Shown here one piece after another: positions 53 to 8,628 of a DNA stretch of 24,000 nucleotides. Source of the DNA: an uncultured Parabacteroides sp. (GTDB lineage: Bacteria; Bacteroidota; Bacteroidia; Bacteroidales; Tannerellaceae). The stretch's first letter is position 1; every line of letters begins with the position of its first letter. The notes below the pieces were generated by a model. The model searched no databases. It was not told the origin of the DNA and worked only from the letters and a program-made list of their open reading frames with translations. Where the stretch lies: assembly GCA_937894065.1 (NCBI GenBank), contig CALCST010000012.1, positions 12,508 to 36,507 on the forward strand, given 5' to 3'. Both the position numbers and the translations under genes were made by a program.

Positions 53-622
53 TTATAATTCTATATCATCACTTGATACAATCCCGTTTATTATAGAATA
101 GAATGTAAGTCCGGATACGGTTTTTATTCCTAATTTACTGGTTATGTTTTTTCGGTGAGAAAGAACCGTATTCAGACTTATATTTAAGTTATCTGCAATT
201 TCTTTATTTGTATATCCTTTTACTATTTGCTGTAAAACATCTGTTTCTCTATTTGATAGGAATTTACTATTTTCAGAATCTGAGTTATTATTAAAACTTG
301 ATGCTAATATTGGCTGTAAAATATCAATAATAGATTCTATATTGGAATTTGTAGGTATAATATTACAATTTGATGTATGTTCATTATTTGAACAGATAAC
401 AAATGTTTTATTCCTTTTCAACAAAAAATAGTCAATGTTTGATGAAAATATTTCGCTATTGGTGAAATAAAAATCAAAAGAGTCTGTGGTCTTGGAGAAT
501 TTATGAAAAGATTCGAATTGCTCAATAAAAAAGTGAGGGAAAAAATCGTTTAATATACTCTGTAGTCCTATTCTTTGGAAACAATCAGGTATGATTATTG
601 CTATTTGTTTGTTTTTAGTCAT
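53..622 (-). CDS. LuxR/GerE-family transcriptional regulator with a receiver-like (probably pseudo-receiver) N-terminal domain
   Basis: The C-terminus has a GerE-type HTH (ETDVLQQIVKGYTNKEIADNLNISLNTVLSHRKNITSKLGI). The N-terminus resembles the receiver beta1 strand (IAIIIPDCF). By eye alignment to NarL, the acidic pair reads PD and the phospho-acceptor position reads N/T (FDFYFTN). The gene starts 9 bp downstream of the preceding gene on the same strand. Confidence 0.8.
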   Translation of the reverse strand: MTKNKQIAIIIPDCFQRIGLQSILNDFFPHFFIEQFESFHKFSKTTDSFDFYFTNSEIFSSNIDYFLLKRNKTFVICSNNEHTSNCNIIPTNSNIESIIDILQPILASSFNNNSDSENSKFLSNRETDVLQQIVKGYTNKEIADNLNISLNTVLSHRKNITSKLGIKTVSGLTFYSIINGIVSSDDIEL

Positions 623-631
623 ATAAACAAA

Positions 632-1342
632 TTATTTACATAAATTCTCCATTGCAGATACAATTGGAGAAAGGATACGATATCTTATCCTGTTGTGCTG
701 TTTTACATCTTTTTCAAGACTGTTGATTGCAAATATTACAGCATAACATAAGTTCTCATCATAATCTCCAGATATATGCTTTATCATAATGCTTTTTAAA
801 TCGGCAAGCAAAGCTTCAATTGAATCGTCATTAGCTTCTTCAGACTGAAGATAAAATCCTTTTTCAGAATCAATATGTCCGCTTTGTCTGATTTTGCCTG
901 ATAATTCAATGCAATATGGAAACCATCTTTCTTCATCATCCTGTATTCTGGCAATAAGTTCTTCTTTGAATGAAGAAAAGAAACGTCCGATAATAGATAT
1001 TGTCGGATTATCAGGTTTACTCATATGGATAAAAGAATCCAAATGACGTTCAATATTTGGAATTTGGTATTTTATGTAATAATGATTTGTCTTGTTCAGA
1101 TAGTCAATAATCTGAGATGTATGAAAACTTCTGAGTTTGCTTTCTGGGAAATACTCTTCATTTAGGAAAGTGTTGATTACGGCAAGAAAGAAATCCGTAT
1201 CAATATTATAATCATTACAAATTTCATAGACTGATTTATCGCCTAATCCAAGACGAATTCCCAGTCTGTTTAATACTGGAATAAGTGAGGGGTGTTCTTC
1301 AACCACCTCACTCATTTGTATATTTGGGTATATTAGTGCCAT
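632..1342 (-). CDS. Hemerythrin/RIC(ScdA)-like domain protein (divergent)
   Basis: The N-terminus (EEHPSLIPVLNRLGIRLGLGDKSVYEICNDYNID) resembles the ScdA_N-type domain. IIDYLNKTNHYYIKYQIPNIERHL resembles the first hemerythrin/RIC helix motif, and the C-terminal HNRIRYRILSP is a degenerate HxxxE-type motif. The track ORF extends to 1438 but overlaps the upstream gene, so I place the start at ATG 1342 (alternative 1315). Confidence 0.5.
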   Translation of the reverse strand: MALIYPNIQMSEVVEEHPSLIPVLNRLGIRLGLGDKSVYEICNDYNIDTDFFLAVINTFLNEEYFPESKLRSFHTSQIIDYLNKTNHYYIKYQIPNIERHLDSFIHMSKPDNPTISIIGRFFSSFKEELIARIQDDEERWFPYCIELSGKIRQSGHIDSEKGFYLQSEEANDDSIEALLADLKSIMIKHISGDYDENLCYAVIFAINSLEKDVKQHNRIRYRILSPIVSAMENLCK

Positions 1343-1352
1343 ATATTGTATA

Positions 1353-5416: not shown

Positions 5417-5477
5417 AAAATCGGGAATAAAAATACTAATTTCCAAATAAAGGAAAAAAGATTTTATCCCCGATTTT
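5417..5477 (-). terminator. Candidate terminator or processing hairpin after the GH2 gene
   Basis: On the minus strand, AAAATCGGGGATAAAA is followed by a 29-nt loop and then TTTTATTCCCGATTTTT. This gives a 16-bp stem with one G-U pair that ends in a U-run. The long loop makes it atypical. Confidence 0.4.
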
Positions 5478-5511
5478 CTAAAAGTAGTTATAATTTAACT
5501 TTTTTAACCAA

Positions 5512-8500
5512 TTACAGTTTGTTCTGAATAGGTTTTATTATGAAACTAAATGTATAATCACCATATGGAATTCTGTATTCTGGTAAAGGTAACTGTCCCC
5601 AACTGTTAACACATCCCAGTCCCATCTGAACTTTGTCAATTGTCAAATTGATATAATTTACTTTTGGAACCTGAGGTGAATGTCTTTGGTCTTTTTCCAA
5701 ACCTTCATCCAATGATTCAATAGAATACTGCAATGCTGAAGCTGTGAACGGAGCATCTGCTACAAGCTGAATACCGTTTCCTCCGGCATTAGTCTGGTTC
5801 CACCAACGGATGTCTGTCTTACTTCCATTTTCCTGTGGACGAATGTAAGAATAGAACTGCTCGTCAACAGTTTGTTTGTATTTGCCCAAATCAGTTGCAT
5901 TGTTTCTGTCTGAATAATTTTCAATAGGACCACGTCCGTAATACTGGATATGAGCCAATGATTTATTCAGTTTCATTTGCATACCAAATCTGAACATATC
6001 TGAAACATTTGCAGACTTGTCAGCTTTGAGAGCTTGTGTTACCTGAACAGCACCTTCATTATTTATAATGTATGTCAATTCCAATTTACCTGAAACAGAT
6101 GGCATGTCATAAGTAGCATTAACTTTAACCATACCGTTTTCAGTTGTAGCCTTCAAATCATTAAGCTTCATTTCTGGATTCTTCCATACAATGTATTTCT
6201 TTTGCAAACCAGCCCCCATGTCATTGTCTGTCGGAGCTCTCCAGAAGTTAGGAGTAAGATGAGTTTCATCTTCCATTATTGACTGACCGTTTACATTATA
6301 TAAACTCATGAATCCATTCTTTCTGTCAAAATCAATTTCAAAATTCTCTCCTTCAACTATTAGATAGAAATGGTCATTGTCTTTGATTGTCGGAGCTGGA
6401 TTCTGATAGTTTGTTGTTCCTTCATTAGCCAATTTCAATTCCGGAGCCTTGTATGGGCGAACTGCCAATTGATTTTTAGCAACTGTATAACCTGCTGGTA
6501 AAAGGTTGGCAGCTTTCTTAAGTTTGAATGAAACATTCAACAATATTTCAGCATTCTTGCACTTGCAAGCGCATTCGCAATTTTCGTCAAGAGAATAACC
6601 AAGTTTCTGCTCAACAGTTTGTTGAGGTTTAACATTCAAATCATTAATGATGCCTTTCTGTACTTCTTCACCGTTAGCAAGCAAACTCCATTCAGCATAG
6701 TAATTGCTCAAATCAGTAAAGAAGTTTTCGTTATATATGCTGATTACACCTTTTTGCAAGTCAACAGGTTTAACCCAAATAGACTGATAATAGTGTCCCA
6801 CTTCATACATGTGTGGATTCGGATTTCTGTCCGGATTAATCAGACCATTGTCCATGAAGTTGTTGTCAGATGCATCATAACGGTTGAAATCTCCACCATA
6901 TGCATATATTTCGACACCATTCTTATCTTTCCATCTCAATGACTGATCAACGAAATCCCAAATAAAACCTCCTTGATAATTAGGATACTTGCGGATTAAA
7001 TCCCAATATTCTTTGAATCCACCTTGTGAGTTACCCATTGCGTGAGCGTATTCACATTGGATAAGAGGCTTGTCCTTGTGTGTCTGGCAATATTCTTCAC
7101 TACGTTTGTAGTCATAATACATAGGACAGAAGATATCCGTGAATTCGTTCATACGAGCCTGCTCATATTGAACAGCACGTGATTTATCTTCATTCTTAAT
7201 CCATTTGTAGCATTCTTCAAAGTTTGGACCGAATCCGGCTTCATTACCCAAAGACCAGAAAATAATTGATGGATGGTTGAAACCTCTCTGAACATTACGC
7301 TGGTTTCTTTCCATGTGAGCTTTTGCATATGCCGGATTTTTAGCCAAAGTCTCTTCGTCATATCCCATACCGTGAGATTCGATATTAGCTTCAGCAACAA
7401 CATAAATACCATATTTGTCGCAAAGGTCATACCAAAGGTTATTGTCTGGATAGTGACAAGTACGTACAGCATTGATATTAAACTCTTTCATTCGTTTGAT
7501 ATCTTGAATCATACGTTCCTTGGAAATGACGTATCCTTTGTCAGGGTCCATTTCATGTCTGTTGGCTCCTTTGAACAATACAGCTTGGCCATTAACAAGA
7601 ATCTGTCCGTTCTTAAGTTCTATCTTTCGGAAACCAACATTGACCGGGATAGATTCCAAAGTCTTGTCACCATTTGTAAGTGTTGCAACCAATTTATATA
7701 AATATGGAGATTCTGCACTCCACTTTTGAGGATTACTTACACTTATAGTAGCTTTTTGTTTTCCAGAACCTTTAACTTCAGTTGTAGCAACTTCTTTTCC
7801 TGATTTGTCAAGAAGCTTTAGGTTTACAGTTCCAGAACCTTTCATCTGAAGGTCAATAGCAAGTGTACCGTCTTTATATTGCGCATCCAAGTCTGGAGTA
7901 ACTCTGATATCTTGAATGTGTGTCGTATTTCTTGTATATAAATAACAATCTCTACCTACACCGGAAAGGCGAAGGAAATCCTGGTCTTCCAGATATGTTC
8001 CATCACACCAGCGGAACACTTGGAAAGCAATCAGGTTTTTGCCAGGTTTAAGATATTTAGTCAGATTGAACTCAGCTTCAAGTTTGCTGTCTTCGCTATA
8101 TCCAACAAATTTACCGTTCACCCATAAATACATATTGGAAGTAACAGAACCGAAATGAGCAATAATTTCTTTCCCTTTCCAGTCTGCTGGAATAGTAATC
8201 TCACGTCTGTAAGAACCAACATGGTTGTTCACTGTCGGTACTTGTGGAGGATTGTTCTTGAATTGGCTTCTCCAAGCGTAACCTACGTTTACATAAATAG
8301 GGTCGCCATATCCGTTAAGTTCCCAGATACCTGGAACTTTCATATCGCCCCAACCTTTGTCGTTGAAGTCGGTTTTGAAAAAGTCTGTAGGTCTCTGGTC
8401 TGCATGTTCAACCCAGTTGAATTTCCAGTTTCCGTTCAAAGTGAGATAATTTTCAGAGTTTACTTTATCTCCTTTCAATGCTTCTTCATACCCTTCATAA

Positions 8501-8628
8501 GCAAAGTAACTGGTATGCATAGGAGCACGATTGATTTGGTTGACATTAGGATCCAACCATTCATTTTGCTGAGCAAAAGCTGTTAAGCCTGTAAATGCTA
8601 ACGCGCATGTTAAAATTCTACGTTTCAT
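5512..8628 (-). CDS. lacZ: GH2 beta-galactosidase (LacZ-like) with an N-terminal signal peptide
   Basis: The protein is 1038 aa. The signal peptide is [22 protein letters not shown]2 catalytic motifs are present: [12 protein letters not shown] (acid/base) and [12 protein letters not shown] (nucleophile region, close to E. coli [12 protein letters not shown]). Confidence 0.9.

Follow-up and report, generated by a model that had tools for sequence, protein, structure and literature searches.

What re-oxidises a nicotinamide cofactor that is trapped in an enzyme outside the cytoplasm? Dehydrogenases of the Gfo/Idh/MocA (GFO) family that are exported by the twin-arginine (Tat) route carry non-exchangeable NAD(P), the example cited in PMC8121099 being Zymomonas GFOR, and the 3-keto-glycoside literature itself names the regeneration of this cofactor as a gap. 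An "as yet unidentified" co-substrate has been proposed for NAD regeneration (Liu 2021; PMC8121099). The GFO of the BT2156-BT2160 (Bacteroides thetaiotaomicron) and AL1-AL5 (Alistipes) systems "gets stuck in the reduced form" and its re-oxidation is rate-limiting in vitro; cytochromes as its in vivo re-oxidant are a speculation of the authors, who identified none (bioRxiv 2024.03.25.586180). A gene cluster in a 24,000-nucleotide stretch of DNA from an uncultured Parabacteroides sp. (hereafter the window; all positions are those of the whole stretch) provides a concrete candidate answer. It pairs a Tat-exported GFO with CytFGE, a fusion of a tetrahaem NapC/NirT cytochrome and an FGE-like domain. 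Sequence comparisons indicate, with a probability of roughly 0.6, that this core pair is a periplasmic dehydrogenase:menaquinone oxidoreductase, probably with FMN on Thr315 of CytFGE, lying within a five-gene operon.

The conserved core and the FGE-like domain

The cluster and its upstream neighbour consist of the following genes:

53-622, minus strand: LuxR/GerE regulator (GerE, 63 bits)
632-1342, minus strand: RIC-like protein (ATG start inside the listed 632-1438 open reading frame (ORF), which starts with TTG)
1353-2309, minus strand: xylose-isomerase-like TIM barrel (AP_endonuc_2, 106 bits)
2397-3782, minus strand: GFO dehydrogenase (GFO_IDH_MocA and C-terminal domains, TAT_signal)
3812-5380, minus strand: CytFGE, tetrahaem NapC/NirT::FGE-like fusion (Cytochrom_NNT and FGE-sulfatase)
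5512-8628, minus strand: LacZ-type GH2 beta-galactosidase (NF052611 above cut-off, Sec signal)

All six minus-strand ORFs reported in the first-pass annotation of the window are present. The intergenic gaps, in the order from LuxR to GH2, are 9, 10, 87, 29 and 131 bp; six genes have five junctions, four of 9-87 bp and one of 131 bp, and not five short ones plus a longer one as had been counted. Profile searches confirmed the GerE, AP_endonuc_2, GFO_IDH_MocA, Cytochrom_NNT, FGE-sulfatase and LacZ-type GH2 assignments.

Eighty genome loci around CytFGE relatives were fetched and all their ORFs were clustered. Parabacteroides is represented, with P. distasonis, P. goldsteinii and P. gordonii among its species, and so are other Tannerellaceae, Massilibacteroides and Dysgonomonas. 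GFO is encoded in 77 of these Bacteroidales loci, the TIM barrel in 74, the RIC-like protein in 66, LuxR in 63 and GH2 in 29, and the gene order is invariably cytochrome, GFO, TIM barrel, RIC-like, LuxR. The nearest relative, L001 (CASFJQ010000014.1), has 93-99% protein identity to the window across nine consecutive genes. The six-gene unit first described is too long, since GH2 adjoins in only the 29 loci and a promoter-like element stands between GH2 and cytFGE, regardless of which gene lies upstream. On the synteny counts and the conservation of this element, the conserved unit is a five-gene operon (53-5380, minus strand) with its own promoter-like element, and GH2 is a facultative neighbour.

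Within this unit, GFO lies directly downstream of CytFGE in all 77 loci that have it; the remaining three contigs end too early. The pairing extends far beyond the Bacteroidales. CytFGE has more than 7000 homologues at E<=1e-10, and among 1.84 billion representative proteins a phmmer search still recognised full-length fusions at identities as low as 39-48%. Four of these were used to build a profile, which brought in another 117, from candidate division KSB1, from Prolixibacteraceae (Sunxiuqinia, Draconibacterium, Gaoshiqia and Mangrovibacterium) and from a Verrucomicrobia metagenome-assembled genome (MAG). In all six individually examined distant loci with downstream DNA, the next gene, 7-30 bp away, encodes a GFO_IDH_MocA protein of 444-450 residues. 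Among the 87 distant metagenome and MAG loci, 58 have at least 1.5 kb downstream, and GFO follows CytFGE in 48 of them, two of these GFO genes being frameshifted; the gap between the two core genes is ~10-30 bp. Every partner GFO has a Cys lipobox and a Tat motif of the form SRRxFL, and the partners from Bacteroidota, KSB1, Verrucomicrobia and Planctomycetes can be aligned over their full length as a single subfamily. The link between cytochrome and dehydrogenase, which the first-pass annotation had staked on their co-occurrence in other genomes, thus held, at a frequency far above chance, in several phyla. By synteny, the deep core is two genes, CytFGE followed directly by a Tat-exported GFO; the TIM barrel is a frequent add-on, and the RIC-like and LuxR genes are confined to Tannerellaceae. 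A haem/FGE-like partner beside this one GFO subfamily occurs in hundreds of loci and hundreds of species, including the gut species among those named above (P. distasonis, P. goldsteinii, P. gordonii). Secreted ConA-like proteins and another Tat-GFO paralogue are also found repeatedly in the distant loci.

The window GFO matches PF01408 (48.9 bits), PF22725 (30.9 bits) and PF02894 (25.5 bits), and has a GCGGRGSGA Rossmann motif. Its twin-arginine signal SRRSFLK, noted in the first-pass annotation, scores above the TAT_signal cut-off (23.3 vs 22.7 bits), and a lipobox (LTSC, Cys36) follows it. For the TIM barrel, which has its lipobox at Cys28, the proposed Tat motif NRRNFLK is present, and its TAT_signal score of 19.7 bits falls under the same cut-off. 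Since GFO carries a lipobox besides its Tat signal, both exported enzymes are Tat lipoproteins. By analogy with related enzymes, the window GFO is presumed to hold bound NAD(P).

CytFGE is taken to start at the ATG at 5380, with the TTG at 5386 as the alternative; its residue numbers count from 5386. It has the following parts:

4829-5317, minus strand: transmembrane (TM) helix and four-haem NapC/NirT domain, residues 24-186 (Pfam, NrfH profile)
5216-5230, 5129-5143, 4958-4972 and 4856-4870, minus strand: four CxxCH haem-binding motifs
3920-4678, minus strand: FGE-like domain, residues 237-489, predicted periplasmic (FGE-sulfatase, 138.6 bits)
4442-4462, minus strand: D309-A-I-S-G-P-T315, candidate ApbE flavinylation loop, with Thr315 as the predicted FMN-phosphoester site

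The haem domain matches Cytochrom_NNT (PF03264) at 80.6 bits against a threshold of 24.1, and the NrfH profile TIGR03153 at 67.5 bits, which does not reach the equivalog cut-off of 134; profile matches to NapC and TorC were also found. All four CxxCH motifs are invariant across 150 homologues. An AlphaFold2 (AF2) model built on the alignment of these 150 sequences (pLDDT 88, pTM 0.86) places a TM helix at residues ~22-47, in agreement with the N-terminal membrane anchor read earlier. A conserved pair, Lys100...Asp107, presumably resembles the quinol-site residues of NrfH. The alignment to NrfH (2j7a) was not significant, and no residue-level claim is made on the quinone site, because a phmmer search of the haem domain against the PDB gave no significant NrfH match. 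In Dysgonomonas-type loci, a cytochrome c maturation gene (CcsBA, a ResB+CcsA fusion) lies downstream of the TIM-barrel gene.

The C-terminal domain has the FGE fold (PF03781, 138.6 bits; Foldseek matches to FGE structures at E ~1e-16). Its best structural match is PvdO (5hha; Foldseek E 2e-18, TM 0.76 on the target), followed by FGEs. Among the 150 homologues, no conserved Cys corresponds to the catalytic Cu-binding pair of FGE (C-x4-C), the equivalent segment having the consensus GGSFKSDAxDVRSAAR, and no invariant His corresponds to the three-His iron site of EgtB. The window sequence RCASRGC was considered as such a Cys pair and rejected, neither Cys being conserved. C344 and C519 are more than 90% conserved and, by manual alignment, match a structural disulfide of human FGE. 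CytFGE scores far too low for the equivalogs of FGE, EgtB and PvdO; for EgtB/OvoA (TIGR03440, 50.7 vs 360) the N-terminus also differs, being a cytochrome domain and not DinB. Because neither the C-x4-C pair nor an invariant His is found, the database label "SUMF1/EgtB/PvdO family nonheme iron enzyme" is probably wrong for these proteins.

The most striking conserved feature of the FGE-like domain is the loop V-D-A-I-S-G-P-T-P-P-[FYW]-G. In the 150 homologues its first motif position is D in 147, the second A in 125 and G in 21, the third I in 127 and V in 19, the fourth S in 81 and T in 69, and the sixth P in 120 and A in 30; the G between them and the final T are invariant. The recognition motif of the flavin transferase ApbE is D-x-x-[S/T]-G-A-[S/T], and its last residue is the one that receives FMN (PMC12052999; PMC8238504). 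An exact D-x-x-[ST]-G-A-T occurs in 30 of the 150 homologues, and the remainder differ only by Ala to Pro. The loop falls in the sole low-confidence stretch of the AF2 model (pLDDT 53-65), as expected for a flexible surface loop. ApbE-type motifs were found neither in the other nine of ten window proteins scanned (53-13183) nor in the partner GFOs, and the D-x-x-[ST]-G-[PA]-T loop is absent from PvdO. As an alternative reading of the loop, the Bacteroidetes O-glycosylation motif D-[ST]-[AILVMT] was rejected; the sequence does not fit it.

Genomic links to ApbE point the same way. ApbE::FGE-like fusions form seven distinct 90%-identity clusters from Planctomycetes, and the three examined in context all adjoin a Tat-signal protein of ~445 residues that is a diverged relative within the same GFO subfamily. 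Both stand-alone FGE-like genes examined are followed by a Tat-GFO gene, in one case with a divergently adjacent apbE. An adjacent apbE is recorded for L083, L172 and four Dysgonomonas-type loci, the distant cytochrome-fusion locus L083 having apbE, cytFGE and GFO on one strand. The four Dysgonomonas-type loci (Dysgonomonas and "Prevotella sp. 10(H)") have a divergent apbE upstream of the three-gene core, CcsBA downstream, and no RIC-like or LuxR gene. The FGE-like subfamily is marked by a C-terminal DPQxPKSxWW and a D-A-[IV]-[STA]-[RQG]-[PA]-[TS]-x-P-Y loop, and it occurs as a stand-alone secreted protein, a monohaem PSCyt1 fusion (P0215) and an ApbE fusion. One further protein (P0129, 495 aa) combines an FGE-like N-terminal part with an FAD-oxidase domain at the C-terminus, though a chimeric assembly or gene call, and not a real fusion, may account for it. 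Because the stand-alone, ApbE-fused and cytochrome-fused forms all sit beside a Tat-GFO, gene context identifies the FGE-like domain, rather than the haem domain, as the constant partner of this GFO subfamily, joined in turn to haems or to a flavin transferase. The domain had at first been left unexplained; it is instead a deeply conserved, specific partner of these dehydrogenases and a probable flavinylation site.

Electron route and competing explanations

In the proposed route, the Tat-exported lipoprotein GFO, folded around non-exchangeable NAD(P), would oxidise a sugar or glycoside hydroxyl to a ketone. The FGE-like domain would re-oxidise the GFO nicotinamide, most likely through covalent FMN attached by ApbE at Thr315, and this flavin would split the two-electron hydride into one-electron steps. 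The four NapC/NirT c-type haems would then pass the electrons to menaquinone, and menaquinol would, in Parabacteroides, be re-oxidised by fumarate reductase or cytochrome bd. Electrons would thus run from the sugar hydroxyl to GFO-NAD(P)H, FMN-Thr315, the four haems, menaquinone and finally fumarate reductase or cytochrome bd. The TIM-barrel lipoprotein may deprotonate the keto-sugar alpha to its carbonyl, with 4-epimerisation, as in YcjR, or elimination as the outcome, and the RIC-like and LuxR proteins may control the operon. Periplasmic oxidation that feeds the menaquinone pool is the reading that requires the fewest assumptions.

The broader claim, that this FGE-fold subfamily is an unrecognised ApbE-flavinylated electron-transfer domain, is put forward tentatively, as somewhat short of probable. 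Such a domain would carry the loop D-x-x-[ST]-[GR]-[PA]-T with FMN on the Thr, re-oxidise the NAD(P)H of Tat-exported GFOs, and send the electrons to c-type haems, fused or separate, and to the quinone pool.

Several points weigh against the flavin-linked route to menaquinone. NapC/NirT proteins normally oxidise quinol, and we know of no FGE-fold protein that binds flavin. The best profile matches of GFO are weak and inositol-dehydrogenase-like. Pro stands in place of the motif Ala in the 120 cytochrome fusions counted above, which include the window protein, and the ApbE-fused branch has Arg-Pro instead of Gly-Ala; A-to-V and G-to-A are the only motif substitutions assayed, each with ~50% flavinylation (PMC12052999). 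An adjacent apbE is rare, being found in one of the 87 distant cytochrome-fusion loci and four of the 80 Bacteroidales loci, and the FGE-like domain is not among the known or predicted ApbE substrates in the flavinylation surveys checked. Finally, 10 of the 58 distant loci are without GFO, and these form one subclade. Its neighbours are a secreted IU-nucleoside-hydrolase/FmdE-like protein and a gene judged SusC-like by its size and N-terminus, and the subclade may, from this context, have a different electron-donating partner. The flanks recorded for it, in seven loci, also include a fumarate hydratase.

The departures from the canonical motif and the scarcity of adjacent apbE genes in Bacteroidota speak for a domain that binds no cofactor. 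The FGE-like part would then be a docking scaffold that holds GFO to the cytochrome, its loop would be structural, and NAD(P)H would reduce haem directly or through a mediator, either non-covalently bound or diffusible. The nearest structures agree with this, being the cofactor-less PvdO and the structural PorK (cf. PorK/GldK). A scaffold, however, leaves unexplained both the recurrent ApbE fusions and adjacency and the Thr with its [ST] alternation that mirrors the ApbE motif. To our knowledge, hydride-to-haem transfer without a flavin or another two-electron/one-electron converter has no physiological precedent. Flavin is proposed on Thr315 because the haems take up one electron at a time and cannot be served by a hydride donor without such a converter, and the scaffold is considered unlikely, if still deserving of attention.

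The electrons might also flow the other way. Menaquinol would then reduce the haems, as in NrfH and CymA, and the FGE-like domain and GFO would together form the terminal reductase, acting on a keto-sugar or another oxidised compound in the periplasm. Menaquinol (~-74 mV), however, is poorly placed to reduce NAD(P)+ (-320 mV) or typical ketone/alcohol couples, and the SusC/SusD, GH2 and keto-sugar-type TIM-barrel neighbours point to catabolic oxidation. It is because of these potentials and this neighbourhood that the direction from sugar to menaquinone is preferred, and reverse flow appears improbable even though NapC/NirT members are classically quinol dehydrogenases and many ApbE-flavinylated systems are extracytosolic reductases (PMC8238504).

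Still less probable is a true oxidase or maturase, in which the FGE-like domain would bind Cu as FGE or Fe as EgtB, be fed by the haems, and modify GFO or a small molecule. The FGE-sulfatase score, the NCBI naming and the implication of PvdO in periplasmic oxidation (by the NCBIfam NF051459 name) speak for such a role. The domain, however, has no conserved catalytic Cys pair and no invariant His/Cys set, its FGE, EgtB and PvdO equivalog scores fall far under cut-off, and both FGE and EgtB require O2, although the host lives anaerobically.

A redox-neutral oxidise-eliminate-reduce cleavage of glycosides of the BT2156-2160/AL type, with CytFGE, RIC-like and LuxR as unrelated neighbours, is the least credible, for although the Tat-GFO, the TIM-barrel lipoprotein and a cytoplasmic GFO in 38 loci parallel AL3/AL2/AL4, the adjacency of CytFGE and GFO persists across phyla even without the TIM barrel, the window GFO scores 25.8 vs 750 bits against BT_2158_fam (NF058561, matched in the Rossmann part only), and no DUF1080 gene was found among the ORFs scanned against Pfam (53-11124 and 11687-22518) or among the recurrent neighbour clusters annotated in related loci.

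If the menaquinone-linked route with its flavin is true, sugar oxidation outside the cytoplasm would feed electrons into the menaquinone/fumarate chain of Bacteroidales by a way not recognised before, and the core pair would stand for a new and widespread class of periplasmic NAD(P)-enzyme:quinone oxidoreductases, present in Bacteroidota, Planctomycetota, KSB1 and Verrucomicrobiota. A new fold would be added to the ApbE substrates, thousands of "SUMF1/EgtB/PvdO family nonheme iron enzyme" entries would need correction, and a route to turnover of in-vitro oxidative glycoside-cleaving systems would be suggested.

Sugar context, regulation and flanking genes

The TIM barrel matches an unpublished P. 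distasonis structure, 3kws ("putative sugar isomerase"), at E 2.5e-156. Its nearest characterised relative is the 3-keto-D-glucoside 4-epimerase YcjR (6wn6; E 1.1e-21, residues 56-308), and ketose 3-epimerases and IolO score similarly. The protein is probably, on these matches, a keto-sugar epimerase, isomerase or eliminase that acts by alpha-deprotonation. The oxidise-then-eliminate locus of the BT2156-2160 type, which had been invoked as a parallel, is disfavoured on this ground too, as YcjR is an epimerase and not a lyase. Divergent TIM barrels occur in ~18 distant loci; tblastn with the window protein under-counted them, and the count was corrected by ORF clustering and Pfam.

GH2 is a LacZ-type enzyme (NF052611, 1030 vs 999 bits) with Glyco_hydro_2_N, Glyco_hydro_2, Glyco_hydro_2_C, LacZ_4 and Bgal_small_N all found. 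Where present, it usually stands within an arrangement of SusC/SusD, cytoplasmic GFO and GH2, and the neighbours in related loci include SusC/SusD, GH2, a second GFO, further TIM barrels and ConA-like proteins. A 388-aa GFO paralogue, with no apparent N-terminal signal by eye, is encoded in 38 of the 80 loci (e.g., L038:248-1414), either between SusD and GH2 or immediately before cytFGE; the window has no copy. By analogy with AL4/BT2159, this paralogue could be a cytoplasmic keto-sugar reductase. A galactoside substrate for the core pair is suggested only loosely, by the GH2 neighbour and the 3'-ketolactose precedent of Caulobacter (PMC9007349).

The two genes at the downstream end of the operon had been read as a hemerythrin/RIC-like and LuxR pair giving redox, O2 or iron-responsive control. 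The RIC-like assignment is the weakest in the cluster. The protein matches no Pfam family and scores 50.9 bits against a cut-off of 204.7 with TIGR03652; ScdA in the PDB aligns to its N-terminal 150 residues at E 3e-4, and a profile of 38 orthologues found only ScdA/YtfE in the PDB, with weak E-values. An AF2 model made without an alignment was unusable (pLDDT 42). A RIC/ScdA-like fold is thus indicated by sub-threshold matches, but the di-iron ligand set is not conserved: the positions aligned to the His-containing motifs of ScdA, which we take to be its di-iron ligand motifs, vary in 38-66 orthologues, the third being without His, and the GIDFCCGG motif of ScdA is GIRLGLGD in the window. Redox, O2, NO or iron sensing is accordingly unsupported. 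Because C42, H74, H100, H189 and C199 are invariant among the orthologues, the protein may bind something, and it is regarded as a cytoplasmic putative sensor or co-regulator.

The LuxR protein has a canonical GerE helix-turn-helix (HTH) and an uncharacterised N-terminal domain of ~110 residues for which no relative was detected; its profile aligned to PDB entries over the C-terminal HTH only, and a receiver-domain reading of the N-terminus found no support there. The proposed linkage of the RIC-like/LuxR pair to the dehydrogenase genes stands for Tannerellaceae (66 and 63 of the 80 loci) and does not extend beyond them. This tight linkage, with gaps of 9-10 bp, supports a dedicated regulatory role in that family. 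After LuxR, many Parabacteroides loci have one or two genes for TonB-dependent receptors, an MFS transporter gene, and a gene with, by appearance, a HemN-like N-terminus. This suggests that the post-LuxR neighbourhood in many Parabacteroides serves haem/iron uptake, which might relate to the RIC-like/LuxR pair.

The spacer upstream of cytFGE contains three elements:

5414-5436, minus strand: promoter-like element GTATTTTTATTCCCGATTTTTGC, conserved upstream of cytFGE
5468-5487, minus strand: related copy of this element, CTACTTTTAGAAAATCGGGG, inside the 131-bp GH2/cytFGE spacer
5493-5500, minus strand: AGTTAAAT box, inside the same spacer

The sequence TACTTTTA is found in 51 of 77 cytFGE upstream regions, whichever gene precedes, ~40-90 bp before the called start, and TTGCCGAT(TTT) in ~30 of the 77; a CGTTAAAT box recurs in 27 related loci. 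The conserved element resembles what we take to be the Bacteroidetes -7 motif, TAnnTTTG. A scan for sigma-70 promoters and terminators gave matches at or below shuffle expectation, the sigma-70 model not being applicable to Bacteroidetes promoters. From their position and recurrence, the spacer elements (5405-5511) may be an operator for the LuxR protein.

A second LuxR/GerE regulator (8766-9533, minus strand; 255 aa, with a ~190-residue uncharacterised N-terminal domain) is encoded directly upstream of GH2. It may control GH2 separately, since it lies beside the cluster only in the nearest relative, L001. Divergent from the cluster are genes for a maltose/galactoside O-acetyltransferase-type protein (9614-10171, plus strand; Mac and hexapeptide repeats) and a DUF1349 ConA-like protein with a signal-peptide-like N-terminus (10465-11124, plus strand); this neighbourhood is not conserved. 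The DUF1349 protein was considered as a stand-in for a DUF1080 lyase and rejected, being beside the cluster only in the nearest relative. Further along, a leucine biosynthesis operon (11687-18341, plus strand) includes two LeuA-like genes (11687-13183 and 15362-16882, the latter with a TTG start), of which the second may encode a citramalate synthase, and a 390-bp gap precedes its leuB. The only Rfam or ARAGORN match in the window is a tRNA-Ser(TGA) at 22705-22790 (plus strand).

Comparison with known systems

The 3-keto-glycoside pathway of BT2156-BT2160 and AL1-AL5 has reportedly also been described in Liou 2020. The window locus has in common with it a Tat-exported GFO with non-exchangeable NAD (presumed here), a xylose-isomerase-fold lipoprotein, a cytoplasmic GFO paralogue in many loci related to the window's, and a proposed chemistry that begins with oxidation of a sugar hydroxyl (PMC8121099; bioRxiv 2024.03.25.586180). 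It differs in lacking the DUF1080 lyase and the SusR/DUF6377 regulator, and its GFO belongs to a different subfamily. The known pathway recycles NAD through its own 3-keto product and has no cytochrome, whereas the window encodes a dedicated haem/FGE-like acceptor beside GFO.

Periplasmic oxidation of glycosides with electrons passing to the respiratory chain through cytochrome c is known from LacABC of Caulobacter, ThuAB of Agrobacterium/Sinorhizobium and the FAD-type G3DH. In Caulobacter, lactose is a substrate of such a respiratory-chain-linked glycoside dehydrogenase (PMC9007349; PMC8121099). These systems use FAD/GMC or ThuA/ThuB enzymes and a soluble or subunit cytochrome c in aerobes; here, a tetrahaem::FGE-like acceptor would serve a menaquinone-using anaerobe. 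Respiratory coupling was judged unlikely in Bacteroides by Liu et al. (PMC8121099).

CytFGE resembles NapC, NirT, NrfH and CymA in its N-terminal TM helix, its four CxxCH motifs and its profile matches above the Pfam threshold. It differs in a C-terminal domain of ~300 residues that is absent from NrfH and CymA, and in its likely direction, as a quinone reductase. A NapC/NirT protein that feeds electrons into the quinone pool has already been proposed, in what is reported of ImoA.

PvdO is the closest solved structure, with an FGE fold without catalytic cysteines and a periplasmic location, and it is needed for the two-electron oxidation of dihydropyoverdine. It has no D-x-x-[ST]-G-[PA]-T loop, haem domain or GFO partner, and its family model NF051459 scores 90.5 vs 500 on CytFGE. 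The ApbE-flavinylated domains (FMN_bind of NqrC/RnfG/NosR/PplA, DUF2271 and DUF3570) share with the FGE-like domain a motif-type loop on an extracytosolic domain, genomic linkage or fusion to ApbE, and association with membrane cytochromes. The differences are the FGE/C-type-lectin-like fold and the motif itself, in which Ala is mostly Pro and, in one branch, Gly-Ala is Arg-Pro.

By these profile and motif comparisons, the locus falls outside the BT2156-2160 pathway, and its proteins outside FGE, EgtB, PvdO and RIC. Full-text, in-text and supplement searches of the literature found no paper linking the FGE-sulfatase domain to cytochromes, ApbE or GFO enzymes, and no description of the fusion, its GFO link or flavinylation of the FGE fold. 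A periplasmic dehydrogenase coupled to the quinone pool is of a known kind; the CytFGE component itself would be new, if its flavin is confirmed.

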